Assembly (NCBI GenBank): GCA_017442225.1
Contig: JAFSAR010000010.1
Span: 30,306 to 94,305 of the forward strand
Source of the DNA: Clostridia bacterium
Lineage (GTDB): Bacteria > Bacillota > Clostridia > Oscillospirales > Acutalibacteraceae
DNA: 64,000 nucleotides
Direction: 5' to 3'
Shown here: piece by piece, positions 39,905 through 64,000 of the stretch
How the letters are laid out: each line of letters opens with the position of its first letter
Numbering within the stretch: position 1 is the first letter of the stretch
Notes under the pieces: model-generated
The model's input: only the letters and a program-made list of their open reading frames with translations
Databases searched by the model: none
Told to the model about the DNA's origin: nothing
Position numbers and translations under genes: made by a program

Positions 39905-40582
39905 ATGCAACAGTTTGAACTTTCCAATCTTGAAAAACTAATGCTAAAGCGTAAAATAATGCGCAAAAAAAGAATACGCGAAATGGTTATTATTTTAATT
40001 GTGGTTGTTCTCGCGCTATGCGGTGTGTTGGGATTTACGCTTTATAAAAACGGCGGTAAATTACCAGCAAAGCAGCTGAACGTAAAAACTTTGATAACAC
40101 CCGACTATGTTGACGAACAGCTTATAAACGTAGGATTTGCAAGAACAGGTGTCAAGCTTGTTGAAATTAATAATATCGTTATTCATTATGTCGGTAATCC
40201 CGATACCTCAGCGCAAAACAACCGCGATTATTTTAACAAGGCGGATACTACCGTGTGTTCGCATTTTGTGATCGGTCTTGACGGCGAGGTTATCCAGTGT
40301 ATACCTTTGGACGAAAAATCAAATGCCAGCAACAACCGCAATCTTGATACAATTTCAATTGAGGTGTGCCACCCCGACGAGAGCGGTAAATTTAATGACG
40401 CTACGTACAGTTCGCTCGTAAAGCTTACTGCGTGGCTGTGCGATAATTCGGGACTAAAAGCCAAAGATGTTATAAGACACTACGATATAACGGGCAAGGA
40501 ATGCCCAAAATATTTTGTGGATAACGAGTCCGAATGGAAAAACTTTTTAGAAGACGTAAAAGAAGAACTTAAAAATTATTAG
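39905..40582 (+). CDS. N-acetylmuramoyl-L-alanine amidase (Amidase_2/PGRP fold), membrane-anchored
   Basis: N-terminal TM helix. IVIHYVGNP, SHFVIGLDG, SIEVCH and RHYDITGKECP motifs. Confidence 0.85.
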   Translation: MQQFELSNLEKLMLKRKIMRKKRIREMVIILIVVVLALCGVLGFTLYKNGGKLPAKQLNVKTLITPDYVDEQLINVGFARTGVKLVEINNIVIHYVGNPDTSAQNNRDYFNKADTTVCSHFVIGLDGEVIQCIPLDEKSNASNNRNLDTISIEVCHPDESGKFNDATYSSLVKLTAWLCDNSGLKAKDVIRHYDITGKECPKYFVDNESEWKNFLEDVKEELKNY

Positions 40583-43842: not shown

Positions 43843-43877
43843 AAAACAGCGTTCTATTATGAGCGCTGTTTTTTTGC
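43843..43877 (+). terminator. Rho-independent terminator of putP
   Basis: AACAGCG..CGCTGTT hairpin followed by TTTTTTT. Confidence 0.7.
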
Positions 43878-43897
43878 AAGTATTTGCTATAAAACCA

Positions 43898-43926
43898 TTG
43901 CAATTTTGATTTTAAAGGTGTATAAT
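43898..43926 (+). promoter_or_regulatory. Candidate promoter of the glycan operon (TTGCAA-17-TATAAT)
   Basis: TTGCAA at 43898-43903 and TATAAT at 43921-43926, 47 nt upstream of the first gene. Confidence 0.45.
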
Positions 43927-43973
43927 ATACACTGTATGATTGGGCATATTGTGTCTGTGCGAAAGGATTTTTT

Positions 43974-44588
43974 ATGTATCGTAATTTTTTTAAAAGATTG
44001 ATTGATATTTTTCTTTCCTTATTGGTTTTAACGATTTTATCTCCAATTTTATTAGTAAGTGCGTTAGCAATTAAGGTTGATTCAAAAGGTCCCGTGATTT
44101 TTAAACAAAAGCGTTTGGGACTTGGTGGAAAAGAGTTTTACATATACAAATTCCGTTCAATGTGTGTTGGCGCTGAAAAGAGTGGAGTTTATTCCGATAA
44201 TAACGATAAGCGTGTTACAAGGGTTGGCAATATTTTGCGTAAAACCAGTATTGATGAATTACCACAAGCCATTAACATACTTAAAGGTGATATGAGCTTT
44301 GTTGGTCCTCGTCCACCACTTACATATCATCCGTGGCCTATTGATGAGTATACAGCTGAGCAGCGTAGAATGTTTAATGTTCGACCAGGTATTACAGGTT
44401 GGGCGCAAGTAAATGGTCGAAAGGCTGTTGAATGGAACAGACGTATTGAGCTTAATAATTGGTATGTTGACAATATTTCGTTTTTGTTAGATATAAAAAT
44501 TTGTTTTATGACAATTTTTAAGGTTTTTACTAACGCAGATAATGAAAATGTTGGTGAAACAGTTGTAAAAGAAACTGTTAATAAGTAG
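43974..44588 (+). CDS. Small monotopic phosphoglycosyl transferase (PglC/WbaP-C-terminal type initiating sugar transferase)
   Basis: 204 aa. KRLIDIFLSLL re-entrant helix, KFRSM, DELPQ and FVGPRP motifs. Confidence 0.9.
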   Translation: MYRNFFKRLIDIFLSLLVLTILSPILLVSALAIKVDSKGPVIFKQKRLGLGGKEFYIYKFRSMCVGAEKSGVYSDNNDKRVTRVGNILRKTSIDELPQAINILKGDMSFVGPRPPLTYHPWPIDEYTAEQRRMFNVRPGITGWAQVNGRKAVEWNRRIELNNWYVDNISFLLDIKICFMTIFKVFTNADNENVGETVVKETVNK

Positions 44589-44596
44589 GTTTGCAT

Positions 44597-45427
44597 ATGG
44601 CACTAAAGTTAATGTATATAACAAATCGCACTGATATTGCAAAAATTGCCGAAGCGGCAGGTGTTGATCGCATTTTTGTTGATTTAGAATACATAGGTAA
44701 AAATATACGTCAAGGCGGTATGGATACAGTCCAAAATCGTCATACGCCAAGTGATGCTGCAGAAATTAAAAAAGTATTAAATAATGCACAGTTGTTGGTG
44801 AGAGTAAATCCTATACATAACTCAACTCAAGAATATTGTTCTACCGAAGAAGAAATTGATGCAGTAATAAATGCAGGTGCTGATATAATAATGCTCCCAT
44901 ATTTCAAAACGGCTGATGACGTAAAAAGATTTATCACAGCTGTAGATGGCAGAGCTAAAACAATGCTATTATTTGAAAGCGCCAAGTCGATTGAAAATAT
45001 CGATAGCATTTTGAAATTAGAGGGAATTGATGAAGTCTATATAGGACTTAATGATTTAAGTTTAGATTACGGTCGTAAATTTTTATTTTCGATTCTTGCG
45101 GATGGAACTGTCGAAAAAATAGCTAAAAAGTTTAAAGAAAAGAAATTACCTTTTGGGTTTGGTGGCATGGCAACACTCGACGGTGGCGCACTACCCGGTA
45201 AAAAAGTTTTACCCGAACACTATGCCTTGGGTTCTACTTGCGTTATTCTTTCACGTGCGTTTTGCAACACTAATGTTATTCAAGACTTGGATGAAATTAA
45301 AATTACTTTTGAAAATGGCGTAAAAAAAATACGTGAATATGAAGAATTTTGTTCAAAGCAAAACGAAGAATTTTTCTATAAAAATCATAGCGAACTTCAA
45401 AATATTGTAGATGAAATTTGTAAGTAA
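44597..45427 (+). CDS. HpcH/HpaI aldolase / citrate lyase beta-like TIM-barrel protein
   Basis: VDLEY, IMLPYFKT and ESAKSIENIDSIL..GIDEVYIGLNDLSLD resemble the HpcH/CitE/PEP-utilising barrel motifs. ATG at 44597. Confidence 0.65.
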   Translation: MALKLMYITNRTDIAKIAEAAGVDRIFVDLEYIGKNIRQGGMDTVQNRHTPSDAAEIKKVLNNAQLLVRVNPIHNSTQEYCSTEEEIDAVINAGADIIMLPYFKTADDVKRFITAVDGRAKTMLLFESAKSIENIDSILKLEGIDEVYIGLNDLSLDYGRKFLFSILADGTVEKIAKKFKEKKLPFGFGGMATLDGGALPGKKVLPEHYALGSTCVILSRAFCNTNVIQDLDEIKITFENGVKKIREYEEFCSKQNEEFFYKNHSELQNIVDEICK

Positions 45428-45438
45428 GAGGAATTTCT

Positions 45439-46344
45439 ATGAATCTATTAGTCACAGGTGCGTATAATTGCACACAAGAACAACTTAATAGAATTACTGA
45501 AATCGGCAATAATATAGTTTTTCACAAAATGGAAAAAGATGACTTACCTTGTTCTTATGATTGGGTAGAGGGTGTCATTTGTAACGGTTTGTTCCTGCAT
45601 CATCCCATTGAAAAATTTACTAATTTGAGGTTTATACAACTTACGAGTGCTGGCTATGATCGAGTTGATATGAATTATGTAAACGAGCATGATATTCAAA
45701 TATTTAATGCACGTGGTGTTTATAGTATACCAATGGCAGAATTCGCGGTGTGCGGTGTGCTTGATCTTTATAAACAAAGCAGATTTTTTTACGATAATCA
45801 AAAGCAACATCGTTGGGACAAGCACCGTGGACTTTTTGAACTTTTTGGTAAAACAGTGTGTATTGTAGGCAGTGGAAATGTTGGTACTGAGTGCGCAAAA
45901 CGCTTTAAAGCATTTGATACAACAGTTTACGCAGTAGATATTTGTAAGCCGCAAAGCGAAATATACGATAAATATTTTTCGCTTGAAAAAATAACCGATG
46001 CAATAAGTCAATCTGATGTTATAGTTTTAACACTTCCGCTTACTGAACAAACAAAATATATGTTTGATAAAAAAATGTTTTTATATTTTAAGTCAAATGC
46101 AATTTTAGTAAATATTGCTCGTGGAGCAATTGTAAATCAAGATGATTTAATTAATGCTTTGAATAATAAGCAACTTTATGGCGCGGTTTTAGATGTTTTT
46201 GAAACCGAACCACTCCAAGCCGACAGTCCGCTTTGGGATATGCCAAATGTAATTATTACTCCACACAATAGTTTTGTTGGGGAGGGTAATATGCAAAGAT
46301 TAACAAATATAATTTTATATAATCTGGAGATGTATAACAGATGA
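45439..46344 (+). CDS. D-isomer-specific 2-hydroxyacid dehydrogenase, NAD-binding
   Basis: GSGNVGTECAKR Rossmann motif and catalytic R (NIARG), E (FETEP) and H (TPH). Confidence 0.88.
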   Translation: MNLLVTGAYNCTQEQLNRITEIGNNIVFHKMEKDDLPCSYDWVEGVICNGLFLHHPIEKFTNLRFIQLTSAGYDRVDMNYVNEHDIQIFNARGVYSIPMAEFAVCGVLDLYKQSRFFYDNQKQHRWDKHRGLFELFGKTVCIVGSGNVGTECAKRFKAFDTTVYAVDICKPQSEIYDKYFSLEKITDAISQSDVIVLTLPLTEQTKYMFDKKMFLYFKSNAILVNIARGAIVNQDDLINALNNKQLYGAVLDVFETEPLQADSPLWDMPNVIITPHNSFVGEGNMQRLTNIILYNLEMYNR

Positions 46345-47942: not shown

Positions 47943-47959
47943 ATTATTGAGGTGTTATT

Positions 47960-49066
47960 TTGAAATTCGTTTTAATTTCTCCCAAAAACCGAACTGTTTA
48001 TAATTTCCGTGGTGATCTTATAAAAGAGATTATTAGTAGAGGATATGAGGTAATTGTAACCGGTCCTGACAGTATTGATGTGGATAAAATAACTGCTTTG
48101 GGTGCAAGATTTGTTGAAATACCCATGAACAAAAATGGTACAAGTATTTTAGGAGACATCAAATATTGCAAAAATTTATATAAATTGTTTAAAAATGAAA
48201 AACCAGATATTACATTGGGCTATACCGTAAAACCTGTTGTGTATGGTGCAATTGCGGCAAAATTTGCAGGTGTAAAAAATATAAACAGTATGGTTACTGG
48301 TGGTGGTTATACCTTTACTGCCAAAACATTTAAGGCAAAGATTTTAGGCCTTATTGTTAGATGTTTATACAAAATTGGTTTTTCAAAAGCCAATAACGTA
48401 ATTTTTCAAAATTCAGATGATCTTAATGAGTTTTGCGACAGGAAGTTGGTTAAGCGCGACAAGTGCAATGTAGTAAATGGTTCGGGTGTTAATACTTCGC
48501 ACTTTTTACCGACTGATTATCCACAAACAACTACGTTTTTTATGCTTTCAAGATTGCTTAAAAGTAAGGGTGTTGTCGAGTATCTTGAAGCGGCAAAAAT
48601 TGTAAAAACAAGATATCCAGAAGTGCGCTTTTGTCTGCTTGGTAAATATGAAACAAATATGCAGGACGCTTTGTCAAAAGAATATGTTGAGACGTTTATT
48701 GCAGATGGTGTTATAGAACGATTCGAAGAAACAAACGATGTAAGGCCATATTATGCTGATTGTAGCGTGTATGTTTTGCCATCTTATCGAGAGGGTACAC
48801 CGCGCACGGTGCTTGAAGCAATGGCGATGGGCAGACCAATCATTACTACCGATACAAACGGCTGTAGAGATACTGTTATTGATGGAAAAAATGGTTTTTT
48901 AGTGACGATTGGTAATAGTAGTCAGCTTGCAGATGCAATGATTAAATTTGTTGAAAATGCTGAATTGATTAAAACAATGGGTGAAGAAAGTGTTATTTAC
49001 TGCCACCAGAAATTTAATGTTAATAAAGTTAATTGTGATATGATTAATATTTTGGGGGTGTCGTAA
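47960..49066 (+). CDS. Glycosyltransferase family 4 (GT-B)
   Basis: EGTPRTVLEAMAMGRPIITTD..G E(x7)E-type motif. TTG start with GAGGTG RBS. Confidence 0.85.
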   Translation: MKFVLISPKNRTVYNFRGDLIKEIISRGYEVIVTGPDSIDVDKITALGARFVEIPMNKNGTSILGDIKYCKNLYKLFKNEKPDITLGYTVKPVVYGAIAAKFAGVKNINSMVTGGGYTFTAKTFKAKILGLIVRCLYKIGFSKANNVIFQNSDDLNEFCDRKLVKRDKCNVVNGSGVNTSHFLPTDYPQTTTFFMLSRLLKSKGVVEYLEAAKIVKTRYPEVRFCLLGKYETNMQDALSKEYVETFIADGVIERFEETNDVRPYYADCSVYVLPSYREGTPRTVLEAMAMGRPIITTDTNGCRDTVIDGKNGFLVTIGNSSQLADAMIKFVENAELIKTMGEESVIYCHQKFNVNKVNCDMINILGVS

Positions 49067-49067
49067 T

Positions 49068-50144
49068 TTGCAAAAACCACTACAACGAAATAATAACATT
49101 GAAATTTTAAGAATAATAGCAATGTTTATGATTATTGCCGGTCACGCTATAACGCATACAGATATTTATGACAATGTTGGTGAAATTAATTTTTATTTTG
49201 TAAAATTTTTTGATATTGTTTTTAATGTTGCTACAAACGTTTATGTAGTTATTTCAGGCTATTTGTTATGTGAAAAAACTTTTAAGATCAAAAAGGTTTT
49301 TAATTTGTGGTTTCAGATTTTATTTTATTCTGTAATCATTTATCTTGTTTTAGTTGCAACTAAACAAATAGAATTTAGTTTAACAAGCATCGTTAAAGTT
49401 TTGATGCCTGTTTCCGGAAATCAGTATTGGTTTGCTCGGGTATATTTAGGATTATATATTTTATCTCCATTTTTAAATCTTCTTATAAAAAGTTTAAATC
49501 AAAAACAATTTCAATGCCTTTTGGTTGTTTTGACAATACTTTTTTCTTTGTGGGGAAGTTTTATACCATTTGCAACGACGCTTAATGCCGAGGGCGGAAA
49601 CAGTATAATTTGGTTTTGTGTTTTATATATGTTTGCTGCATATATAAGAATTTATGGAGTACCACTAAAGTCAAACAAGGCTTTAATTGGTTTGACAATG
49701 TCGTTTTTTGTATTTGCTTTTTTATCAAGCGTTGTGCTCGAAAAGCTATCATTAATGATTGGACTTGGCGGTAAGGGTGCCAGTCAGTTTACAACCTTTA
49801 ATTCATTTACTATGTTGTTTGGTGCTGTTGGCCTTTTATGCATAGCTGTGAAGCTACCACACATAAATAAATTCAGCAAAGTAATACAATGGTTTTCATT
49901 AAGTACATTTAGTGTATATTTAATTCACGATAACAAATATTTAAGACATATTTTATGGGAATTTTTGAGAATCGATGATCTTGCGGATGAATTTTATATA
50001 GTTCCATATATTTTGTTAACTTCTGTAGCAATATTTGTTGTATGCGCATGTTTGGATAAAGTTATTTATATACCATTAAATAAATTTGTTTCAAAAATTA
50101 GTTTCAAAAAATTACAATCAAAAATAGATTCTTATATAATATAA
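49068..50144 (+). CDS. Acyltransferase family 3 membrane protein (probable O-acetyltransferase)
   Basis: NNNIEILRIIAMFMIIAGH N-terminus and about 10 TM helices. Confidence 0.8.
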   Translation: MQKPLQRNNNIEILRIIAMFMIIAGHAITHTDIYDNVGEINFYFVKFFDIVFNVATNVYVVISGYLLCEKTFKIKKVFNLWFQILFYSVIIYLVLVATKQIEFSLTSIVKVLMPVSGNQYWFARVYLGLYILSPFLNLLIKSLNQKQFQCLLVVLTILFSLWGSFIPFATTLNAEGGNSIIWFCVLYMFAAYIRIYGVPLKSNKALIGLTMSFFVFAFLSSVVLEKLSLMIGLGGKGASQFTTFNSFTMLFGAVGLLCIAVKLPHINKFSKVIQWFSLSTFSVYLIHDNKYLRHILWEFLRIDDLADEFYIVPYILLTSVAIFVVCACLDKVIYIPLNKFVSKISFKKLQSKIDSYII

Positions 50145-50165
50145 AGAAAAAAGGAGTAATTTATT

Positions 50166-51485
50166 ATGTCACTTTATGAGAAAATTGTTAATGGGGAAGA
50201 AAAAATTTCGCTTGTAGGTCTTGGTTACGTTGGTATGCCTATAGCCGTATCTTTTGCAAAAAAGGTTAAGGTTGTCGGCTTTGACCTTAACGCCAAAAAG
50301 ATTGAGCTTTACAAGTCGGGCATTGACCCTACAAACGAAGTAGGCGATGAAGTTATTAAAAACACTACCGTTGAGTTTACTGCTGATGAATCAAAGCTTC
50401 GTGAAGCAAAATTCCATATTGTTGCTGTACCTACCCCTGTAAATGACGACCATACGCCCGATTTAACACCTGTTGAGGGCGCTTCAACAATAGTTGGTCG
50501 CAACATTACCAAAGGCTCAATTGTAGTTTATGAGTCTACTGTTTACCCCGGTGTTACCGAGGATATTTGTATTCCGATTTTGGAACGCGAATCGGGTCTT
50601 AAATGCGGTGTGGACTTTAAGGTTGGTTATAGCCCTGAGCGTATTAACCCGGGCGACAAGGTTCACCGCCTTGAAACAATTGTTAAAATTGTAAGCGGTA
50701 TGGACGAAGAATCACTCGAGGAAATTGCTAACGTTTACGAGCTTGTTGTTGAGGCAGGCGTTCATCGCGCCGAAAGCATCAAGGTTGCTGAGGCTGCAAA
50801 GGTAATCGAAAATAGCCAACGTGATATTAACATTGCCTTTATGAACGAGCTTTCTATTATCTTTAATAAAATGGGTATTGATACACAGTCGGTACTTAAG
50901 GCTGCAGGCACAAAATGGAATTTCTTAAAGTTTTATCCGGGTCTTGTTGGCGGTCACTGTATAGGTGTTGACCCATATTACCTTACATACAAGGCAGAAC
51001 AGCTTGGTTATCACAGCCAAATTATTCTCTCAGGTCGTCGTATAAATGATGATATGGGCAAGTACGTTGCTGAAAGTGTTGTTAAAAATCTTATAAAAGC
51101 TGATTTGCCAATTAAGAATGCAAAGGTTGCGATTTTGGGCTTTACTTTCAAAGAAAATTGCCCCGATACCCGCAACACAAAGATTATTGATATTTATAAC
51201 GAGCTTAAAGAGTATGGTATAACTGCAACTGTTGCTGACCCCGCGGCAGATGCCGATGAAGCCGAGCACCTTTACGGTATGAAATTTGTAGATATTTCTA
51301 CCATTAAAGATTGTGATGTGGTTATACTTGCCGTTGCTCATGAACAGTTTAAGTCGCTTACACAAGCTGATTTTGACAAAATGTTCAAATCAGTTGAGAA
51401 TAACAAAAAGGTTCTTGCAGACATTAAAGGTTTGCTTAACCGTAAAGAATATGAAACTGCTGGCTATAATTATTGGAGATTATAA
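50166..51485 (+). CDS. UDP-N-acetylhexosamine 6-dehydrogenase (TviB/WbpO-like nucleotide sugar dehydrogenase)
   Basis: Collinear with my recollection of Salmonella TviB: GLGYVGMP, VPTPV..PDLTP, VVYESTVYPG, GYSPERINPGDK, ESIKVAEAAKVIEN.QRD and GLVGGHCIGVDPYYL. Confidence 0.88.
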   Translation: MSLYEKIVNGEEKISLVGLGYVGMPIAVSFAKKVKVVGFDLNAKKIELYKSGIDPTNEVGDEVIKNTTVEFTADESKLREAKFHIVAVPTPVNDDHTPDLTPVEGASTIVGRNITKGSIVVYESTVYPGVTEDICIPILERESGLKCGVDFKVGYSPERINPGDKVHRLETIVKIVSGMDEESLEEIANVYELVVEAGVHRAESIKVAEAAKVIENSQRDINIAFMNELSIIFNKMGIDTQSVLKAAGTKWNFLKFYPGLVGGHCIGVDPYYLTYKAEQLGYHSQIILSGRRINDDMGKYVAESVVKNLIKADLPIKNAKVAILGFTFKENCPDTRNTKIIDIYNELKEYGITATVADPAADADEAEHLYGMKFVDISTIKDCDVVILAVAHEQFKSLTQADFDKMFKSVENNKKVLADIKGLLNRKEYETAGYNYWRL

Positions 51486-51502
51486 TTTTTTAGAGGAATT
51501 TT

Positions 51503-53029: not shown

Positions 53030-53043
53030 GAGAGGTTATAATT

Positions 53044-54018
53044 ATGGGTTATAAACATCTAAAGTTTCCTGAAAATACTTTGTTTTTGGTAACAGGTGCT
53101 GCCGGTTTTATTGGTAGCAACCTATGCGAAGCAATACTTGATTTAGGTTATAAGGTTCGTGCCTTAGATGACTTTTCAACAGGTAAGCAAGCAAATGTCG
53201 ATTTGTTTCTTGATAATCCAAACTATGAGTTTATCAAAGGTGATATCAAAGATTTAGATACTTGTATGAAAGCATGCGAAGATGTAGATTTTGTGCTTAA
53301 TCAAGCAGCTTGGGGCAGTGTACCTCGTAGCCTTGAAATGCCTATTTTCTACTGTCGCAACAATATTGAAGGCACCCTTAATATGTTAGAGGCTGCTCGT
53401 CAATGTGGTGTTAAAAAGTTTGTTTATGCTTCAAGTTCTTCCGTTTATGGTGATGAGCCTAATCTTCCTAAAACCGAGGGAAGAGAGGGTAACCTTTTGT
53501 CACCATATGCTCTTACAAAACGCTGTGATGAAGAGTGGGCAAAGCTTTATACAATGCATTATGGACTTGATACCTACGGTATGCGTTATTTTAACGTGTT
53601 TGGTCGTCGTCAGGATCCTGATGGTGCATACGCGGCTGTTATTCCTAAATTCTTAAAGATGCTACTTCACGGCGAAAAACCAACTATAAATGGTGATGGC
53701 AAACAAAGTCGTGACTTTACATACATTGATAACGTTATCGAGGCTAACTTAAAAGCTTGTCTTGCGCCACACGAGGCGGCAGGCGAGGCATATAACATAG
53801 CCTATGGTGGTCGTGAGTATCTTATTGATATTTACTACGGTCTTACCAAGGCTTTGGGTGTTGATATCGAGCCAAACTTTGGCCCTGATCGTAAGGGTGA
53901 TATTAAACACTCTAACGCAGACATTAGCAAAGCAAAACGTCTCCTCGGCTACGACCCTGATTACAGCTTTACTGACGGTATAAAACTTGCTATAGAGTGG
54001 TATAAGGAGAACTTATAA
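53044..54018 (+). CDS. UDP-N-acetylhexosamine(uronic acid) 4-epimerase (TviC/WbpP-like SDR)
   Basis: VTGAAGFIGSN, AAWGSVPRS, SSSSVYGD, SPYALTK, RYFNVFGRRQDP.GAYAAVIP and GDGKQSRDF are collinear with TviC/WbpP as I recall them. Confidence 0.88.
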   Translation: MGYKHLKFPENTLFLVTGAAGFIGSNLCEAILDLGYKVRALDDFSTGKQANVDLFLDNPNYEFIKGDIKDLDTCMKACEDVDFVLNQAAWGSVPRSLEMPIFYCRNNIEGTLNMLEAARQCGVKKFVYASSSSVYGDEPNLPKTEGREGNLLSPYALTKRCDEEWAKLYTMHYGLDTYGMRYFNVFGRRQDPDGAYAAVIPKFLKMLLHGEKPTINGDGKQSRDFTYIDNVIEANLKACLAPHEAAGEAYNIAYGGREYLIDIYYGLTKALGVDIEPNFGPDRKGDIKHSNADISKAKRLLGYDPDYSFTDGIKLAIEWYKENL

Positions 54019-55838: not shown

Positions 55839-55840
55839 GG

Positions 55841-56662
55841 ATGGATATGATGAAACAAGGACATATTTCAGTCATTATGGCAACCTATAATTGTGCCGAT
55901 ACTTTACGTCAAAGTGTTGATTCGGTTTTGGCACAAACGTACACGGATTATAAATTTATAATTTGTGATGATTGCTCTACTGATGATACATACTCAATAT
56001 TAAAACAGTATGAGGCTGATTATCCCGATAAGTTTTTGATAATTAAAAATGAAAAAAATTCAAAGTTGCCATTTTCGCTTAATCATTGCTTAAAATATGC
56101 TGATGGTGAATATTGTGCGCGTATGGACGGTGACGATTATATCGCGCCTGACCGTTTTGAAAAGCAGGTAGAGTTTTTAAAAAATAATCCCGACATACAG
56201 CTTGTTGGTTGTGCGTTGCAGACATTTGATGACAAAAAGGGTATGGGTAGGATAATATATTGTCGTGAATACCCCGAAAAACTCCATCTTTTAGATGCTC
56301 CTTGTTTTCCGCATGCAGCAATTATGACCTATACAAGTGTGTATAATGCTCTTGGCGGATACACTGTATCGAAGCGAACTGTGCGTTCACAGGATTATGA
56401 TCTTTGGTTTAGGTTTTTTGCCAAAGGCTTTAAAGGTGCAAATTTGCAAGAACCTCTTTACTTTATGCGTGAAGATGAATTTTCCTTCCTTAGAAGGAAA
56501 CCTCGACTCTACTTATGGCTTATGGTAACTAAATGGAAAGGTTATCGTTTGCTAAAATTTCCGCTTAAATATTATTGGCACATTTTATTACCGCTTGTTG
56601 CTCTTTTTAGAAATGAAACAAGAAAACTGAAGGCAAAAACGTCTCTAAAAAGTAAAAAATAA
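55841..56662 (+). CDS. Glycosyltransferase family 2
   Basis: ISVIMATYNCADTLRQSVDSVLAQTY..FIICDDCSTDDT and DGDD (DxD). The start could be the ATG at 55847 or 55850. Confidence 0.88.
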   Translation: MDMMKQGHISVIMATYNCADTLRQSVDSVLAQTYTDYKFIICDDCSTDDTYSILKQYEADYPDKFLIIKNEKNSKLPFSLNHCLKYADGEYCARMDGDDYIAPDRFEKQVEFLKNNPDIQLVGCALQTFDDKKGMGRIIYCREYPEKLHLLDAPCFPHAAIMTYTSVYNALGGYTVSKRTVRSQDYDLWFRFFAKGFKGANLQEPLYFMREDEFSFLRRKPRLYLWLMVTKWKGYRLLKFPLKYYWHILLPLVALFRNETRKLKAKTSLKSKK

Positions 56663-56691
56663 AATTTAAAGTTTTTTGGTGATTTGATTTT

Positions 56692-57783
56692 ATGATTTCT
56701 TATATTATTGTTTTTTTTATTGTTGGTGTGTTTGCCTGGCTTGCAGAAAAAAGTCACAAAGAAGTTACCGATCTTACAGGCGATGTTCTACATAAAAAAA
56801 CAACAAGTACAATTATATTTTTAATTATTGCCGGCGGACTGCTTACTGCTATGGCAGGTCTGCGTTATCACGTTGGTACAGACTATAAAAACTATATTTA
56901 TTTATATGAAACTTTTTATTCAAAACAAAGTTTAAAAGAGCTTTTGGTTATTGATAATGAACCAATGTTACCGATTATTGGCCATTTTTCACATAAGTTT
57001 TTTGATTCATATTATGCTATGTTCTTTTTTGCTTCCGTCATCTCGGTCGGTATAGTTATTTATAGCACTTACACAGAAACTACAGATTTTCTTTATACAA
57101 CAATGCTTTACATTTTTGCCGGCGGTTTTGTTGGTTCGTTCAATGGCATTAGGCAATTTATGGCGGTTGCAATTGTGTTTTTAGGTAGGCGTTTTATTGT
57201 AGAACGTAAGTTTTGGAAATATCTTTTGGTTTGCTTTATTGCTTTTTTGGCGCATAAATCTGCACTGTTTTGTATTTTGTTCTATTTTGTTTATACTAAA
57301 AAATTCTCTACAAAGCGACTCTTAATAATACTTATAATTACAATATTCTTCTCTATTAATTATGAAACTATATTTGATTTTATTGGATGGATGAATGATG
57401 CTGAATTTGTTGCAGATGCATACGCATCAACAAGTGTTAATGTGTTCAGAACATTAGTTGGTTGTTGTCCTGCTATAATGGGTCTTTATTTTGCATATAA
57501 CAAAAAGGATTTAGATGACCAACAAGTATTTTATATTTATATATTAGTTATTAATGCTGCAACGCGTATAGTAACATCTGATAGTGCATATCTCGCACGT
57601 CTTGCGTGTTATCCTACGGTTTTTGTACCGCTGGGTCTTGGCTATCTAACTGACCTTTGCAGTCAAAAGTATTATAAGGTATTTAGAGCGGGAATTTTGA
57701 TTTTGTATATGGCTTTTTGGTTATATGAAGTATTAAATACAAAAACATTACGCGAATTTGAATGGATTTTTGGAAATATGTAA
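56692..57783 (+). CDS. EpsG-family membrane protein (Wzy-like polymerase candidate)
   Basis: About 10 TM helices and the GLRYHVGTDYKNY motif typical of the EpsG family. Confidence 0.75.
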   Translation: MISYIIVFFIVGVFAWLAEKSHKEVTDLTGDVLHKKTTSTIIFLIIAGGLLTAMAGLRYHVGTDYKNYIYLYETFYSKQSLKELLVIDNEPMLPIIGHFSHKFFDSYYAMFFFASVISVGIVIYSTYTETTDFLYTTMLYIFAGGFVGSFNGIRQFMAVAIVFLGRRFIVERKFWKYLLVCFIAFLAHKSALFCILFYFVYTKKFSTKRLLIILIITIFFSINYETIFDFIGWMNDAEFVADAYASTSVNVFRTLVGCCPAIMGLYFAYNKKDLDDQQVFYIYILVINAATRIVTSDSAYLARLACYPTVFVPLGLGYLTDLCSQKYYKVFRAGILILYMAFWLYEVLNTKTLREFEWIFGNM

Positions 57784-57806
57784 TTTGTATTTGGGGTGAA
57801 ATGATT

Positions 57807-58733
57807 ATGAATAATTTAAAAATTTTGGTTGTTATGGGTGGTACCTCTTCAGAACGCGAAGTTTCACTTCGTAGCGGACAAGCGGTATATGATGCACTAG
57901 TGCGAGTAGGCTATAATGTTGAAAAATTTATTCTTAATGAAAATAATGTTTGTGGAATCATAGATATTAAGCCTGATTTATGCGTATTAGCATTGCATGG
58001 TAAGGGCGGTGAAGATGGTACGATTCAGGGTATGCTTGAGCTCGCCGGTATTAAATACACAGGTTCTGGAATAGCAAGTAGCGCTAATTGTATGAATAAA
58101 ATTCTTACTAAAAAATTATTGCAAATTAATGGAATACCTACACCACAATACGCTGTTATTAATAAAGGTGAAAATGTTATTGACTTTGTTGATTATATAC
58201 TTACAAAATTTGATTTTCCCCTTGTGGTTAAAGCACCGTGTCAAGGCTCTAGTGTAGGTGTTGAAATAGCTCACAATAAAGAACTACTTATAAAATCAAT
58301 TGAAAATAACATTGATTATGATGGTGAAATTCTTATAGAAGAGTTTATAAATGGTACTGAACTTACTGTTCCTGTTATGCGTGAAAATAACAATGTTATT
58401 TCGCTACCAATAGTTGAAATTGTTTCTGAAAATTCTTTTTATGATTTCGAATCAAAATATACAACCGGAATGAGTCGTCACATCATACCGGCAAGAATTT
58501 CTAATGATGCAAGTGATAAAATAAATAAATATGCTATAGATGCATATAAAGCCTTATCTTGCAAGGGTGTTGCACGTATTGATTTTTTTATTGACAAAGA
58601 CGATAATCCTTATGTAATAGAAATTAATACTCTTCCAGGAATGACAGCAACAAGCCTTGTTCCAGATTCGGCAAAAGCAGCCGGAATATCTTTTGATGAA
58701 CTTGTTAATATGATCGTTATGCAAGCATTATAG
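57807..58733 (+). CDS. ddl: D-alanine--D-alanine ligase (DdlB-type ATP-grasp)
   Basis: KILVVMGGTSSEREVSLRSG, LHGKGGEDGTIQG, the FYDFESKYT omega-loop region with Tyr retained and EINTLPGMT. ATG at 57807 preferred. Confidence 0.9.
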   Translation: MNNLKILVVMGGTSSEREVSLRSGQAVYDALVRVGYNVEKFILNENNVCGIIDIKPDLCVLALHGKGGEDGTIQGMLELAGIKYTGSGIASSANCMNKILTKKLLQINGIPTPQYAVINKGENVIDFVDYILTKFDFPLVVKAPCQGSSVGVEIAHNKELLIKSIENNIDYDGEILIEEFINGTELTVPVMRENNNVISLPIVEIVSENSFYDFESKYTTGMSRHIIPARISNDASDKINKYAIDAYKALSCKGVARIDFFIDKDDNPYVIEINTLPGMTATSLVPDSAKAAGISFDELVNMIVMQAL

Positions 58734-58764
58734 ATTATTTCATTGTTGACATAAGGAGATTTAT

Positions 58765-59715
58765 ATGAGTATAAAAAATTTTTTACGAAATGTATTATAT
58801 AAAAATGGTATTGGTAAATCAATATGGTATACTTTGCATACAATTAATATTAATGTTCTTCGCGTGTTACCGAATGAAACTTATTTTAAACGTGCTTACA
58901 AAAAAACGCATGGCGTAGATCCTAATTTTAAAGATCCACAAACATTTGACGAAAAGCAATTGTGGCTTAAGATGAACTATCGCAACCCGCTTTGTACAAA
59001 ATGCTCAGATAAATATCTTGTCAGAGAATACATAAAAGAGTGCGGATTAGAGCATATTCTTAATCCAATATACGGTGTGTATGATTCTGTAGATGACATA
59101 AAGTGGGAAGAACTTCCAGATAGATTTTATATTAAAGCAAATCATATGAGTGCTTGTAACGTGCGTTGTAATAATCTTGCAACATTTGAAAAAAAAACGG
59201 CTGTAAAAAAACTTGCTCGTGGTATGAAGCATGATTACTCACTTGACTCAAGAGAATGGAATTATCACGATATCGACCGTAAAATTATTGCAGAAGCAAT
59301 AATTGAAAATCAGGATGGATCTGGACTTATAGATTATCGATTTTTGTGTAGTTATGGAAATTGCGACTATCTGTTTGTTGACATTGATACTGCTGATGAA
59401 AACGGAACCCACAGAACGGATGCAAGAAGAAACGTTTACGATAAAGATTTTAATTTGATGGATGTTAAGGTTTCTAGACCTAATTTTGAACCGTCTTTTA
59501 TTTCAAAACCTAGTAACTTTGATGAAATGCTTAAATATGCTCAAATTTTAAGTAAGCCATTTCCATTTTGCAGAGTTGATTTTTATAATGTCGATGGCAA
59601 AATCATTTTTGGTGAAATAACATTTTTCCATGCAGGCGGACTCAGTAAGGTAACGCCAAAAGAATGGGAAATTAAACTTGGCGATATCATTAATCTTAAA
59701 GAGCTTTTAAAATAA
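58765..59715 (+). CDS. TupA-like ATP-grasp fold amidoligase family protein
   Basis: About 316 aa. DPQTFDEKQLWLKM, DKYLVREYI, FYIKANHMS, DYRF and CRVDFY..DGKIIFGEITF match the TupA-like ATP-grasp family layout as I remember it. Confidence 0.7.
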   Translation: MSIKNFLRNVLYKNGIGKSIWYTLHTININVLRVLPNETYFKRAYKKTHGVDPNFKDPQTFDEKQLWLKMNYRNPLCTKCSDKYLVREYIKECGLEHILNPIYGVYDSVDDIKWEELPDRFYIKANHMSACNVRCNNLATFEKKTAVKKLARGMKHDYSLDSREWNYHDIDRKIIAEAIIENQDGSGLIDYRFLCSYGNCDYLFVDIDTADENGTHRTDARRNVYDKDFNLMDVKVSRPNFEPSFISKPSNFDEMLKYAQILSKPFPFCRVDFYNVDGKIIFGEITFFHAGGLSKVTPKEWEIKLGDIINLKELLK

Positions 59716-59729
59716 AATCGGAGTTAATT

Positions 59730-60839
59730 ATGGTTAGAATTTTACATGTGGTTGGCACTATGGATTTGGGTGGTGCCGAGACCTTTATTATGAACTTGTA
59801 TAGAAAAATTGATCGCGAGAAGGTTCAATTTGATTTTTTATGTCATAATCGTATTGAAGCCAAATATACAGATGAGATTTTGTCTATGGGTGGCAAAATG
59901 TATATGGTAGAGGGTATATCTCACGTAGGTTTTTTAAAATATGAAAAGAGTTTATACAACTTTTTTAAATCGCACCCCGAATACCAGGTTGTTCACTCGC
60001 ATCAAAACGATTTAAACGGTCTTATTTTAAAGCAGGCGGCACGTGCAGGCGTAAAGGTGCGTGTTTCACATTCTCATACTGAATATCATTACAAAAGTTT
60101 TCAAAGAAAGGCTTTGTTTGCCTTTTTTAAGTATAATGTTAATCGCTATACTACCGATGCATTTGCGTGTTCAAAGCCTTCGGGTAATATGCTATATACC
60201 GGTAAACTGAAAAAAAACTTTGACGTGATCTATAACGGTATTGATACGAATAGATTTGCTTATAGTGCTGAAAAAGGTCAAACGATAAAAGATGAGTTTA
60301 ACCTCAGCAATGGGCCGATAATTGGACATGTTGGTAGATTTGCACCCGTTAAAAATCATACGTTTATAATTGATATTTTTAATGAGTTTTTAAAGCTTTA
60401 TCCTAATGCAAAACTTGTGTTAGTGGGTACAGGAGACACACTTGTTCAAACAAAAGATAAGGTAAAGACTCTGGGTATTGAGAAAAGTATTTTGTTTTTA
60501 GGCTTAAGGACAGATGTTGACAGTATTTTAAGTGCTATAAATATATTTTTATTTCCTTCTATCCACGAGGGATTGCCGTTGTCTGTTGTCGAGGCACAGT
60601 GTTCGGGGCTAAAGGTTATTACTTCTGATACAATATCAGAGGATACAGTTATTACCGATTTAATAACACGTATGCCTTTAAGCTGTTCTGCAAAGCAATG
60701 GGCAGAAAAGCTAGACGAACTTTACGTTAATTCAAAATCTGTAGATAGAAGTATATATGCAAATGTAGTTAACAATGCAGGTTTTGGCTCAAAGCAAATT
60801 GCAAAAACTTTGGTTGATAGATATTTAAAAAAGTTATAA
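59730..60839 (+). CDS. Glycosyltransferase family 4 (EpsF-like, GT-B)
   Basis: RILHVVGTMDLGGAETFIMNLYR N-terminus and EGLPLSVVEAQCSGLKVITSD. Confidence 0.88.
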   Translation: MVRILHVVGTMDLGGAETFIMNLYRKIDREKVQFDFLCHNRIEAKYTDEILSMGGKMYMVEGISHVGFLKYEKSLYNFFKSHPEYQVVHSHQNDLNGLILKQAARAGVKVRVSHSHTEYHYKSFQRKALFAFFKYNVNRYTTDAFACSKPSGNMLYTGKLKKNFDVIYNGIDTNRFAYSAEKGQTIKDEFNLSNGPIIGHVGRFAPVKNHTFIIDIFNEFLKLYPNAKLVLVGTGDTLVQTKDKVKTLGIEKSILFLGLRTDVDSILSAINIFLFPSIHEGLPLSVVEAQCSGLKVITSDTISEDTVITDLITRMPLSCSAKQWAEKLDELYVNSKSVDRSIYANVVNNAGFGSKQIAKTLVDRYLKKL

Positions 60840-60854
60840 GGAGCGAAATTAATA

Positions 60855-61721
60855 ATGCGACTTGGGCAAATAGTTTGGCAACTTGCTATTAGAAAGTTGC
60901 CTCAAGGCGCCATTTTGACAGATAAAAAGACACCATTTATAGCAGTACCAAATCCAATTGGAATGTGGGCTGCAGATCCATTTATTTTAGAAAAAGATAA
61001 TAAGGTCTATATTTTTGCTGAGTTGTTTTCTTTGTCACAATGGCGCGGAAAGTTAGGCTATTGTGTTTATGAAAACAATAAATTCTCAAAATGGAATATA
61101 ATTTTTGATGATGAACACCACTATTCGTATCCTAATGTGTTCGAAAAAAACGGTGAAATTTTTATGATGCCCGAAACAGGTTCTATAAACGAGATTGCTA
61201 TTTACAAAGCCGTTGATTTTCCGTCAAAATGGGAAAAACAGTCAGTGATTTTAAGCGGTGAAAAAATGGTTGATTCAGTTTTTATATCTGATGATACTAT
61301 TTTAAGTTATAAAATGTTTGGCAATTTTAAAAATCATCTTGTTTTACTTAAAAAAGAAAATAATGATTGGTATCAGGTTGCAAACATTGTTGATAGTCAG
61401 GAGATTAAGCGTCCGGCAGGTAAGATTTTTTCATGCGGAGCAGGCTTTGTCAGACCTGCGCAAGATGGTCGTAGTTTATATGGCGGAGCAATTAAGTTTT
61501 TTGATTGCGGTGACATAGCAAATGATATTAATAGCGAAAAAGAAATTCTTGATTTGCAACCTTGTGAAATTGTTGTTAAAAATTTAAATAAAGAATTTGT
61601 TGGTACACATACATACAATTCCATTTCTAACTTTGAAATTGTTGATGTCCAATATTACAAGTTTTCGTTTATTGGCTTGTTCAAAAGAATTTTTATAAAA
61701 TTATCAAAACGCAGGAGATAA
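60855..61721 (+). CDS. Hypothetical protein, possibly a beta-propeller (GH43/GINT1 N-terminal-like) fold
   Basis: WAADPFIL..K.YIFAE and YPNVFEKNGEIFMMPE resemble glycoside hydrolase-like propeller blades. The assignment is weak. Confidence 0.4.
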   Translation: MRLGQIVWQLAIRKLPQGAILTDKKTPFIAVPNPIGMWAADPFILEKDNKVYIFAELFSLSQWRGKLGYCVYENNKFSKWNIIFDDEHHYSYPNVFEKNGEIFMMPETGSINEIAIYKAVDFPSKWEKQSVILSGEKMVDSVFISDDTILSYKMFGNFKNHLVLLKKENNDWYQVANIVDSQEIKRPAGKIFSCGAGFVRPAQDGRSLYGGAIKFFDCGDIANDINSEKEILDLQPCEIVVKNLNKEFVGTHTYNSISNFEIVDVQYYKFSFIGLFKRIFIKLSKRRR

Positions 61722-61724
61722 TTT

Positions 61725-62810
61725 ATGAATATATGCTTTTTTACCGGAAATATGGGCAACGGTGGTGGTACTGAAAAAATGACTCAGCTACTATCGTCTG
61801 AATTTTGTGAAAACCAAAATGACAACATTTTTGTTCTTACAAAATCGAACATAAAAATAGAACCGTATTTTACACTCGACGAAGATGTAAAATACAGTAT
61901 TTTAGATAACGGTAAATATGTTAAGATTTTTTCTTTGATTAAAGATGTTTTTTTGCTTGCAAAATATATTAAAAATAATAATATTGATGTTTTAATCAAC
62001 GTTGATGTTTCTTTAGGCGTTTTTTCTTTACCGCTAAAAATTCTTTGTCCCAAACTTAAGCAAATTTATTGGGAGCACTTTAGTGTTTTATATAACATAA
62101 ACAATAAACGAACAAACAAGCTTAGAAAAAAAGCGTTAAAATATGGTGATGCATACGTTGTATTAACACCACAAGATGCAAATGAGCTTAAACACACGTA
62201 TAAAAAAATTAATGCTAAATTATTAGACATACCTAACATTTCTACATATCAAATATCTGATACAAAATATAATTTGGCATCCAAAACAATTTTGTCTGTT
62301 GGAAATTTAATTAAAGTAAAAGGTTTTGATTTGGCAATAGAAGCTGCTTCAAAAATTTTTGAAAAACATCCTGATTGGTGTTGGCATATCTATGGTGATG
62401 GTAGTGATGGCGATGAATTTAAACAGATGGTAAAAAATTTATCACTTGACGATAATATTAAATTCATGGGCAGAACAAACAATTTAACAAAGGCTTATTC
62501 TGAATCAGCAATTTTTGTCTTGCCATCACGAAGTGAAGGTTTTGGACTTGTGCTTATAGAAGCACAGTCGTATCACATACCAACAGTTGCTTTTGATGTA
62601 CCTTTTGGTCCAAGAAACGTTATAACCAATGGTGTTAACGGATTTCTTGTTGAACCTTTTGATACCGATAGTTTAGCAGAAAATGTTTGTAAACTGATAG
62701 AAGATGATAATTTTAGAACAACCTTTTCTGATAATGCTTCAAAGGATCTATATAAATATCAAGCTGATGTTGTTTCAAAGCAGTGGCAAAATTTATTACA
62801 ACAAATATAA
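61725..62810 (+). CDS. Glycosyltransferase family 4 (GT-B)
   Basis: PSRSEGFGLVLIEAQSYHIPTVAFD..GP E(x7)E motif. Confidence 0.88.
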   Translation: MNICFFTGNMGNGGGTEKMTQLLSSEFCENQNDNIFVLTKSNIKIEPYFTLDEDVKYSILDNGKYVKIFSLIKDVFLLAKYIKNNNIDVLINVDVSLGVFSLPLKILCPKLKQIYWEHFSVLYNINNKRTNKLRKKALKYGDAYVVLTPQDANELKHTYKKINAKLLDIPNISTYQISDTKYNLASKTILSVGNLIKVKGFDLAIEAASKIFEKHPDWCWHIYGDGSDGDEFKQMVKNLSLDDNIKFMGRTNNLTKAYSESAIFVLPSRSEGFGLVLIEAQSYHIPTVAFDVPFGPRNVITNGVNGFLVEPFDTDSLAENVCKLIEDDNFRTTFSDNASKDLYKYQADVVSKQWQNLLQQI

Positions 62811-62851
62811 ACAATTTATTCACAATTGCAATTTTAGAAGGTTAATTTAGT

Positions 62852-63868
62852 ATGAATGCACCCTTGGTATCGATAATAATACCGATGTATAACTCACAAG
62901 ATAAAATTAATAAATGTATTAATAGTGTTGTTAAACAAACGTATAAAAAAATAGAAATATTATTGGTTAATGATGGTTCGACCGATAATTCTTTATCAAT
63001 ATGCAATGATATTGCGAAAGCTGATAATCGTATAAAAATTATTGATATTGAAAATCAAGGCGTAAGTGTTGCAAGAAACATAGGAATTCAACAGGCCAAA
63101 GGTGACTATATAATGTTTGTTGACAGCGATGATTATGTTGAAAATACTATTGTCGAAAAGCTGTTAAATAATTTAATTGAAAATGATGCTGATATCAGTC
63201 AATGTGGTTGCAATGTTGCAAATAATAACGGTAAAATTTTAAAAACTTATAATGTTCCTTATTATAATATATTAAATAGGGAAGAAATAATTAAAAAAAT
63301 AGTACTACCATTATTTGGGAAAATTAAGGTTGATTCTGTCGCTATACAAGGCTTTTGTGTCTGTAAATTATTTAAAAAAGATATAATCAATAATATTAGA
63401 TTTAATGTTGAGCAAAGAATATATCAAGATCGTTGCTTTAATATTGATGCATATTTAAATGCACAAAAAACAAGCTTTATTGACGAGCAGTTGTATTATT
63501 ATGTTGTAAATTCCACATCATCTACTCAACGTAAACGTGACGATATTTGGAAACAGTGTACAATTTTGATTGATGCCTTAAACAGTAGAATCGGCTTGCT
63601 TTCAGGTGATTTTAACAGTGAGTTAAAATCACGTATTCATAAAACTGCTTCCACAAGGTTAGTATATGTTACAAGGCATATTTTTAAATATCAATCGGAA
63701 AAAGGCATATTAAATGCGGTTCGGTTTGTTAAACAAATGCGACAAAATTTCATGTTCGATAAAGGAGTATTAAATCCTGATTTGGGATTTGTTTTTAGTG
63801 TATTATCAAAATTATTACATTATAGGCTTTATTTTTTAGCTGTTTTAGTTTCAAAAATTGCAGGTTGA
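62852..63868 (+). CDS. Glycosyltransferase family 2
   Basis: VSIIIPMYNSQDKINKCINSVVKQTY..ILLVNDGSTDNS and DSDD. Confidence 0.88.
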   Translation: MNAPLVSIIIPMYNSQDKINKCINSVVKQTYKKIEILLVNDGSTDNSLSICNDIAKADNRIKIIDIENQGVSVARNIGIQQAKGDYIMFVDSDDYVENTIVEKLLNNLIENDADISQCGCNVANNNGKILKTYNVPYYNILNREEIIKKIVLPLFGKIKVDSVAIQGFCVCKLFKKDIINNIRFNVEQRIYQDRCFNIDAYLNAQKTSFIDEQLYYYVVNSTSSTQRKRDDIWKQCTILIDALNSRIGLLSGDFNSELKSRIHKTASTRLVYVTRHIFKYQSEKGILNAVRFVKQMRQNFMFDKGVLNPDLGFVFSVLSKLLHYRLYFLAVLVSKIAG

Positions 63869-63888
63869 TTAATTAAAGGAGCGTTTTT

Positions 63889-64000
63889 ATGAATCAAACG
63901 ATTCGTCTTGAAGGTGAGTTGTTAAAAAGTGTGCAGCAGACTGAACTTTCTATATTAAAAGATGTTGCTGATTTTTGCGAAGAAAAGGGTATTAATTATT
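63889..64000 (+). CDS. LicD-family phosphotransferase, N-terminal fragment (runs off the right edge)
   Basis: LKSVQQTELSILKDVADFCEEKGINY matches the LicD N-terminal block (LQ..EL.IL..F...C.K..I.Y). AAAGGAG RBS. Confidence 0.6.
   Translation, partial: MNQTIRLEGELLKSVQQTELSILKDVADFCEEKGINY

Follow-up and report, generated by a model that had tools for sequence, protein, structure and literature searches.

Immediately downstream of putP, in a 64,000-nucleotide stretch of metagenomic DNA (assembly GCA_017442225.1, contig JAFSAR010000010.1, positions 30,306 to 94,305; hereafter the window), lies a long glycan operon that includes a paralogue of the peptidoglycan ligase MurF and a D-alanine-D-alanine ligase (Ddl). 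The source is an uncultured, Acutalibacteraceae-like, spore-forming gut Clostridia bacterium, and the operon forms a single, lower-G+C island. Eighteen complete open reading frames (ORFs) occupy the plus strand from 43974 to 63868, followed from 63889 by a LicD gene of which 37 codons fall inside the window; the whole locus, between putP and spo0A, comprises 21 genes over ~24 kb. A preliminary description of the sequence had counted at least 20 plus-strand genes separated by 0 to 40 nucleotides (nt). The single-strand run holds, but the window contains 19 of these genes, and their spacing runs from -22 to +41 nt. The five ATP-dependent amide-forming ligases that it had listed are borne out by family models and folds, on which basis we regard all five carboxylate-amine ligases as genuine: a MurF-like protein, Ddl, a full-length AsnB-type amidotransferase, a glutaminase-less protein of AsnB fold and a TupA-like ATP-grasp protein (Table 1).

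The MurF-like protein falls below the cut-off of the MurF model TIGR01143, as does its homologue in L013 (209 bits; L numbers denote the loci and contigs fetched). An ordinary Oscillospiraceae MurF (L110, 457 aa) scores 347.5 bits, is 34% identical to the window protein and is encoded in the order rsmH-spoVD-murE-murF-mraY-ftsW-murG-murA, typical of a division and cell wall (dcw) cluster. In an AlphaFold model of the window protein (predicted local distance difference test score, pLDDT, 92.4), all three domains of the MurF fold are present. The top ten PDB matches found by Foldseek are all MurF (template modelling score 0.75-0.82), with MurE and MurC behind, and among solved structures MurF is nearest in both fold and sequence, before MurC, MurD and MurE; models of the archaeal pMur ligases match weakly (~1e-11). 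The P-loop of the GxxGKT type, GSIGKTTTK, is conserved across 84 family sequences, with G139 to T144 and K147 invariant and T145 nearly so, and the MurF signature DDSYNANP reads ADCYNAVA. Two helices are specific to the family, an extra basic one at the N terminus and a conserved one at the C terminus. A membrane-binding role for these helices was considered and is unsupported beyond the basic charge, their amphipathicity (0.43 and 0.37) lying under the 95th percentile of 0.49.

A sequence search with this protein returned 644 relatives at E<=1e-30. The best 120 of the 644, down to 41% identity, are mostly ~510-520 aa long, some of them truncated, and come from metagenomes or metagenome-assembled genomes (MAGs); only 4 of these 120 carry a name in the source, either MurF or 'hypothetical protein'. 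In a profile search of 1.8 billion representatives, ~24 clusters span the whole profile at 415-783 bits, and at least about 10 family members occur among the matches listed from species representatives. By a panel of marker proteins, dcw genes surround all six of the canonical MurF loci fetched versus none of the ~37 MurF-like loci. On sequence and fold, we assign the protein to a distinct clade of ~510 aa rather than to standard MurF. Because it scores under the MurF cut-off, has only 34% identity to the dcw enzyme, carries extra helices and is encoded in glycan operons, its acceptor is probably not UDP-MurNAc-tripeptide. More distant relatives of the MurF-like domain occur in fusions of 650-1470 aa (P0256, P0262, P0273, P0276, P0279, P0280, P0289 and P0314) with PGA_cap, BspA-type leucine-rich repeats (LRR_5) and ATPgrasp_ST and, in two, with a Peptidase_S11 D-Ala-D-Ala carboxypeptidase domain.

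The second ligase appears from its sequence to be an ordinary Ddl that makes D-Ala-D-Ala. It lies far under the D-Ala-D-Lac and D-Ala-D-Ser models (VanG 238 bits versus a cut-off of 495; D_ala_D_lac 185 versus 550), and alignment to solved Ddl enzymes retains, in SSERE, GSSVG and SKY, the equivalents of the Glu, Ser and Lys-Tyr residues that we take to be E15, S150 and the omega-loop pair K215-Y216 in E. coli DdlB numbering. Its true start is probably at 57801 or 57807 (M14 or M16), since solved Ddl enzymes align from residue 17 onwards and the L013 homologue has 308 aa; the overlap of 22 nt with the EpsG gene probably follows from an over-long ORF call.

The third enzyme, which we call PPloop533, gave a structural model of pLDDT 88.8 whose best matches are carbapenam synthetase, beta-lactam synthetase, TsnB9 and AsnB. 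These matches cover both domains at 11-14% identity, and the N-terminal Cys is absent; sequence searches of PPloop533 and of the TupA-like protein against solved structures gave no match. All of the best 120 of its 719 homologues are unnamed or 'hypothetical'. PPloop533 is predicted to form amides by adenylation, independently of glutamine, and it may attach a hydroxy-acid-derived or amino-acid group open to later extension. The AsnB-type amidotransferase, above the TIGR01536 cut-off (290 bits versus 267), is a probable uronamide former by its domain content, and no counterpart of it was found in the related loci scanned.

The preliminary description had proposed a combination of enzymes not described together. 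We found no literature description of it, yet the combination recurs, rearranged, in at least 10 related Clostridia loci and is not unique to the window. An Acutalibacteraceae MAG (L102) is nearly colinear with the window, and four further loci (L104, L101, L012 and L014) contain its modules, arranged differently; among these five, identity is 82-94% for tviB and tviC and 55-71% for the MurF-like gene. The identities of the MurF-like and Ddl proteins co-vary across loci. As lower bounds within the stretches fetched, many from short contigs, the ~37 MurF-like loci contain Ddl in at least 15, TupA-like ATP-grasp genes and PPloop533 in at least 9 each, PGA_cap in at least 7 and alanine racemase in at least 5 (L100, L180, L182, L183 and L246). 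Flippases, polymerases, LicD and glycosyltransferases are likewise found near MurF-like genes. The recurrent Ddl, alanine racemase, TupA-like and AsnB-fold partners fit a short peptide built on a glycan, and to that extent the short-peptide decoration suggested earlier is strengthened.

The association extends to gene order. A head module of initiating transferase, HpcH-like gene, 2-hydroxyacid dehydrogenase, PPloop533 and glycosyltransferase family 4 (GT4) gene recurs in L101, L102, L104, L244 and L245, of which L244 and L245 have no MurF-like, tviB, tviC or TupA-like gene nearby. PPloop533 directly adjoins MurF-like genes in L012, L014, L101 and L246, and in L104 only tviC separates the two. 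Tandem MurF-like pairs are present in rumen metagenomes (L187, 6395-9334; L195, 4564-7537; L196, 1690-4631), with a PPloop533 gene just 5' of the pair in L195 and L196; such pairs suggest stepwise peptide building like that of MurC to MurF. In a Ructibacterium MAG (L015, 10001-11510), a MurF-like gene with no glycan genes around it has two frameshifts. Barring assembly errors, this copy is probably a pseudogene, and it looks dispensable there.

Two further observations concern the relatives. TupA-like genes adjoin a gene of the octopine dehydrogenase family and PGA_cap genes in L099 (14980-18167) and L012 (12545-14591), a hint of opine-type (N-carboxyalkyl) decoration with amino acids in the related loci. 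In L102, a few kb 5' of the glycan operon and beside lepA, two minus-strand genes (214-2491) appear, from their translations read by eye, to encode a MurD-like ligase that stands alone and a D,D-carboxypeptidase of VanY type; a weak MurE-panel match is what supports the former.

The remaining genes are those of a glycan pathway. Family assignment by Pfam and NCBIfam models, with bit scores read against curated cut-offs, bears out the earlier list of gene families and adds three genes absent from it, encoding the HpcH/HpaI-like protein, the D-2-hydroxyacid dehydrogenase and the GINT1_N-like protein. The initiating transferase aligns to WcaJ/WbaP-type models in their catalytic C-terminal part alone. 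The TviB-like protein is above the TIGR03026 cut-off (388 bits versus 190) and is 82-91% identical in L012, L014 and L104. With the TviC-like protein it forms a branch to UDP-N-acetylglucosaminuronic acid (UDP-GlcNAcA) and UDP-N-acetylgalactosaminuronic acid (UDP-GalNAcA), and the uronic-acid glycan locus proposed at the outset is supported in this respect. A Vi-antigen locus was rejected: TviB and TviC both score under their equivalog cut-offs, TviE gives only generic GT4 matches, and there is no ABC exporter. GT4 (a) is conserved after the head module in relatives; the GINT1_N-like protein has no NCBIfam match and no counterpart in related loci.

The HpcH-like protein weakly matches solved HpcH/hydroxyketoacid aldolases, and its gene adjoins those of the transferase and dehydrogenase in L101, L102, L104 and L244. 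The dehydrogenase is under every NCBIfam equivalog cut-off, that of VanH included (104 versus 540), and no specific model matched the pair. One idea, offered only as a lead, is that the two might supply a glycerate-type hydroxy acid, a group present in Clostridioides difficile lipoteichoic acid (PMC13558421).

Table 1. Features of the glycan locus (window coordinates).
Feature	Position	Strand	Evidence
Terminator-like hairpin and T-run of putP	43846..43878 (approximate)	+	Intergenic sequence read directly: AACAGCG...CGCTGTTTTTTT
Best sigma-70-like promoter match before the operon, TTGCAA-17-TATAAT	43898..43926	+	10/12, consensus match only
Small PglC-type polyprenyl-phosphate phosphoglycosyl transferase (initiating), 204 aa	43974..44588	+	PF02397, 231.9 bits
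HpcH/HpaI-fold (class II pyruvate aldolase-like) protein	44591..45427	+	PF03328, 47.5 bits
D-isomer-specific 2-hydroxyacid dehydrogenase	45439..46344	+	PF02826, 184 bits
PPloop533, putative glutaminase-less AsnB-fold PP-loop adenylating ligase, 533 aa	46341..47942	+	Weak Asn_synthase match, SGGTDS PP-loop
GT4 glycosyltransferase (a)	47960..49066	+	PF00534, PF13477
Acyltransferase-3 membrane O-acyltransferase	49068..50144	+	PF01757, 83.7 bits
TviB-like UDP-GlcNAc 6-dehydrogenase (makes uronic acid)	50166..51485	+	NF011729, 485 bits (cut-off 592)
MurF-like Mur ligase paralogue, 508 aa	51503..53029	+	TIGR01143, 225.5 bits (cut-off 288.6)
TviC-like UDP-GlcNAcA 4-epimerase (to UDP-GalNAcA)	53044..54018	+	NF011728, 302 bits (cut-off 760); PF01370, 207 bits
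Full-length AsnB-type amidotransferase (GATase_7 and Asn_synthase), 606 aa	54018..55838	+	PF00733, 248 bits; PF13537, 66 bits
GT2 glycosyltransferase (a), EpsE-like	55841..56662	+	PF00535, 118.8 bits; NF053739, 281 bits
EpsG-family membrane protein (predicted Wzy-like polymerase)	56692..57783	+	PF14897, 154 bits
D-alanine--D-alanine ligase, short DdlB type	57762..58733	+	NF002378, 359.9 bits (cut-off 243)
TupA-like ATP-grasp amidoligase	58765..59715	+	PF14305, 148.9 bits (gathering score 25)
GT4 glycosyltransferase (b)	59730..60839	+	PF00534, PF13439
GINT1_N-like protein, 288 aa	60855..61721	+	PF24793, 85 bits
GT4 glycosyltransferase (c)	61725..62810	+	PF00534, 140 bits
GT2 glycosyltransferase (b)	62852..63868	+	PF00535, 127 bits
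LicD-family phosphotransferase, start, cut by window end	63889..64000	+	PF04991, 145 bits (via L006)

The window sequence is part of a 147-kb metagenome contig, and the sequence after its end was taken from contig L006, which is identical to the window over the 1149-nt overlap. There, LicD is followed by a 521-aa polytopic protein, a 590-aa protein with VanZ and NTP_transf_5 domains, and then spo0A and other core genes; the locus extends ~4 kb past the window and ends at about window-equivalent 68007. In the 521-aa protein many hydrophobic segments are present and the match to MatE is weak (E=0.005), and pairwise BLASTP against two Polysacc_synt flippases gave no significant match. From these features we consider this protein, which resembles the multidrug/oligosaccharidyl-lipid/polysaccharide (MOP) exporters, a candidate flippase and no more. 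Thus, while the preliminary description correctly noted no Wzz, tyrosine kinase or LytR-type gene in the window, a flippase candidate lies just past its end. Genes for LytR-CpsA-Psr (LCP) proteins, Wzz and tyrosine kinases were found neither among window ORFs of at least 200 aa nor in the 10 kb beyond; other parts of the genome may supply these functions, namely an LCP-type wall ligase and a chain-length regulator or tyrosine kinase.

A sharp compositional shift had also been described. The spot values behind it (0.15, 0.333, 0.433 and 0.517) are exact but represent extremes, and the shift is real but moderate: G+C is 0.3985 for 1-43898 versus 0.3296 for 43899-64000, 2-kb windows span 0.35-0.45 upstream versus 0.28-0.36 in the locus, and G+C returns to 0.40-0.45 beyond spo0A. 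Third-codon-position G+C (GC3) is 0.377 +/- 0.04 in 27 core ORFs upstream versus 0.185-0.343, about 0.25, in locus genes. At the top of this range are tviB (0.343) and tviC (0.314); near its bottom are the MurF-like gene (0.196) and Ddl (0.185), both more than 4 standard deviations (SD) under core genes.

Upstream, the terminator reported after putP is visible as a hairpin and T-run, with a loop of more than 8 nt that caused the automatic scan to overlook it. The rest of the window encodes core functions, including signal peptidase, RNase HII, trigger factor, ClpX, phosphoenolpyruvate carboxykinase, SpoIVA and a two-component system, among others. Immediately upstream of putP are a 479-aa esterase or alpha-beta hydrolase, in which a hydrophobic stretch at the N terminus is combined with a linker rich in Ser and Thr (40624-42063, minus strand), and a 225-aa Amidase_2 protein of the N-acetylmuramoyl-L-alanine amidase family (39905-40582). 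A tyrosine recombinase gene is present at 36129-37112, and large serine recombinase genes lie just 5' of related glycan loci in L098 (285-1952), L244 (3900-5573) and L245 (4213-5886); recombinases beside these related loci could reflect mobility or promoter inversion. None of 80 putP relatives fetched (58-82% identity, the window's own species not among them) has the locus after putP, a comparison that is uninformative because that species is not among the species representatives. The nearest of these relatives (at most 82%) are from animal-gut MAGs labelled Acutalibacteraceae, Oscillospiraceae or Clostridia. Exact-protein look-ups recovered the same locus in several metagenome samples, with no variant arrangement.

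That this is a glycan locus is close to certain. The fuller reading that we favor, a Wzx/Wzy-type glycan containing GalNAcA whose carboxylates are amidated, including an extension with D-Ala-D-Ala, seems to us, taken whole, somewhat better supported than not; for the D-Ala-D-Ala step by itself we would put the chances near even or slightly higher. Gene content, folds, operon structure, clade separation and recurrent neighbors are observed, and we infer from here on all substrates and the order of steps. The small PglC-type transferase would begin the repeat unit on undecaprenyl phosphate, five glycosyltransferases would lengthen it, and LicD and the acyltransferase would decorate it, with UDP-GlcNAcA and UDP-GalNAcA provided by the TviB-like and TviC-like enzymes. 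Before flipping, four ATP-dependent ligases would amidate carboxylates of the uronic acid or its substituents in the cytoplasm. Since all five ligases are taken to be soluble and ATP dependent, amide formation would occur there, with nucleotide sugars or lipid-linked intermediates as substrates. In this scheme, AsnB would form a primary uronamide, the TupA-like protein and PPloop533 would couple an amine, an amino acid or a group derived from a hydroxy acid, and the MurF-like ligase would add D-Ala-D-Ala from the operon's own Ddl to a free carboxylate. The MOP-like protein would then flip the unit and EpsG polymerize it.

Several observations weigh against this reading. In L013 (9986-12457), a MurF-like-Ddl pair with 66% and 70% identity, respectively, to the window proteins lies by itself, flanked by the rnfCDGEAB operon and spoIVB and away from any glycan genes, the sole context resembling a core-genome position. 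Ddl relatives (66-71%) also stand alone in L247 and L250, flanked in the latter, as read by eye, by ABC transporter, 3-dehydroquinase and elongation factor P genes. The Ddl clade includes probable housekeeping copies, and the window Ddl may be, or derive from, a housekeeping enzyme. Some MurF-like loci lack Ddl (L098 and L101) or uronic-acid genes (L098 to L100); the acceptor need not be a uronate, nor need the added group be D-Ala-D-Ala in every case. Profile scores of the MurF-like family slope continuously to canonical MurFs (~455 aa, at most 290 bits) with no clean gap. Finally, the AsnB N terminus reads MSGICGF (54018-54035), placing the catalytic Cys of the N-terminal nucleophile (Ntn) type at residue 5 rather than 2, and a good ribosome-binding site lies 8 nt 5' of this ATG; activity would need N-terminal processing.

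The alternative that best survives retains an amide-decorated uronic-acid glycan and differs in the last step, with the MurF-like ligase adding a single amino acid or another amine and Ddl being the cell's ordinary enzyme encoded at this site. The MurF-like genes without Ddl, the standalone Ddl-clade copies with core-type neighbors in L250, and the altered MurF signature all fit this alternative, as do the tandem MurF-like pairs, which suggest stepwise addition of different residues. Against it count the repeated presence of Ddl and alanine racemase in MurF-like loci, the covarying identities of the two ligases, the standing of MurF as the nearest solved relative, ahead of MurC, MurD and MurE, and the fusion of more distant relatives with a D-Ala-D-Ala carboxypeptidase domain. 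We regard this alternative as unlikely, if still deserving of weight.

It is also conceivable, though we think very improbable, that the MurF-like protein and Ddl, as the sole copies in the organism, do the ordinary work of peptidoglycan synthesis and were moved into a polysaccharide operon whose glycan bears no peptide. The 64-kb window has no second murF or ddl, the L013 pair sits in a core-gene setting, Ddl is above its model's cut-off, identities of 63-71% between loci are compatible with vertical descent, and adjacency of ddl and murF is normal in some Firmicutes. Against this stand the score of the MurF-like protein under the MurF cut-off and its distance from the dcw MurF of the same order, the lack of a dcw context in any MurF-like locus, the placement of the gene between tviB and tviC in three genera, the tandem and frameshifted copies, the low GC3 of both genes and the few family members, at least about 10 in the matches listed, among species representatives. 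The view implied by the preliminary description, that the ligases are not housekeeping enzymes, is thereby made likely for the MurF-like clade, which is distinct and never in dcw, but not for Ddl, which is ordinary and groups with apparently housekeeping copies.

Last, a van-type glycopeptide-resistance or wall-remodeling cassette beside a glycan locus by chance, which the co-occurrence of a D-2-hydroxyacid dehydrogenase, a Ddl-family ligase, a MurF variant and a VanZ-domain protein in one operon might suggest, is scarcely credible and was rejected: all van models score far under their cut-offs, VanH among them, the ligase is of D-Ala-D-Ala type with Lys-Tyr kept, family scans of the locus proteins gave no VanX, VanY, VanR or VanS, the genes are interleaved with glycosyltransferases, and the dehydrogenase stays with the initiating transferase and PPloop533 in loci that lack both MurF-like and Ddl genes.

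The individual parts of the locus are of known kinds: the branch of alanine racemase (Alr), Ddl and MurF, TupA-like amidoligases, AsnB-like uronamide formers and AsnB-fold lactam synthetases. Amino-acid amides of uronic acids occur in capsules and O-antigens, and to our knowledge few of the responsible enzymes have been identified. The D-Ala branch of peptidoglycan synthesis uses the three enzyme families seen in these loci and probably an equivalent chemistry, in which D-Ala-D-Ala is formed first and is then joined, at the cost of ATP, to a free carboxylate, with the difference that the window ligase resides inside Wzx/Wzy glycan operons, beside TupA-like and AsnB-fold ligases, and never in dcw. 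AsnB-like enzymes form uronamides in Pseudomonas aeruginosa O6 (WbpS) and Francisella tularensis (WbtH), where, as here, a full-length AsnB-type enzyme stands beside the UDP-GalNAcA pathway; those O-antigen loci have one amidotransferase, whereas here there are five amide-forming ligases and an AsnB with an MSGIC N terminus. The product, N-acetylgalactosaminuronamide (GalNAcAN), is a known O-antigen residue in Francisella (PMC10924466). For PPloop533 the best structural matches, beta-lactam synthetase, carbapenam synthetase and TsnB9, are AsnB-fold enzymes that work without ammonia from glutamine; PPloop533 resembles them in having both domains and no N-terminal catalytic Cys, but they act on small secondary metabolites, while PPloop533 is a fixed part of a glycan head module.

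The preliminary description called the product teichuronopeptide-like. In Bacillus halodurans, the teichuronopeptide, a uronic-acid polymer joined to amino acids, gave the ATP-grasp family its name through TupA. The likeness is loose, as the window has no poly-gamma-glutamate synthase and PGA_cap genes occur only in relatives; the locus is a teichuronopeptide system in name only. In the HS:2 capsule locus of Campylobacter jejuni, the TupA-like ATP-grasp Cj1438C amidates the C6 carboxylate of glucuronic acid with ethanolamine phosphate or serinol phosphate (PMC11800379). Unlike the window protein, the C. jejuni version is a domain of a large glycosyltransferase, and neither a Mur ligase nor Ddl accompanies it. 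The nearest precedent for Mur-type ligases serving a glycan other than murein is archaeal pseudomurein, which contains an N-acetylated aminouronic acid and a peptide stem assembled by Mur-ligase homologues (PMC10117817); it differs in being archaeal and in having L-amino acids only, with no D-Ala-D-Ala. In a full-text literature search, we found no description of a MurF paralogue with Ddl inside polysaccharide loci or of alanyl-alanine on glycans.

The locus and its relatives point to gut Clostridia having repeatedly placed a private D-Ala-D-Ala branch, made up of a MurF paralogue, Ddl and sometimes alanine racemase, inside polysaccharide operons, where the sugar polymer probably bears short cell-wall-like peptides. 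A further and distinctly doubtful extension is that peptidoglycan-like acyl-D-Ala-D-Ala stems from this branch serve penicillin-binding proteins as substrates for covalent cross-links that join the glycan either with peptidoglycan or with itself; if so, they would provide LCP-independent anchoring of a wall polysaccharide or a second murein-like layer, as well as a decoy for glycopeptide antibiotics. Should the chemistry proposed here hold, several hundred 'MurF' annotations in gut metagenomes would be misassigned, and abundant uncultured gut bacteria would possess a new class of peptide-bearing surface glycans. D-Ala-D-Ala, the vancomycin target and the substrate of penicillin-binding proteins, would then be displayed outside peptidoglycan, with a bearing on wall anchoring, antibiotic binding and the interpretation of D-amino-acid dipeptide probes.

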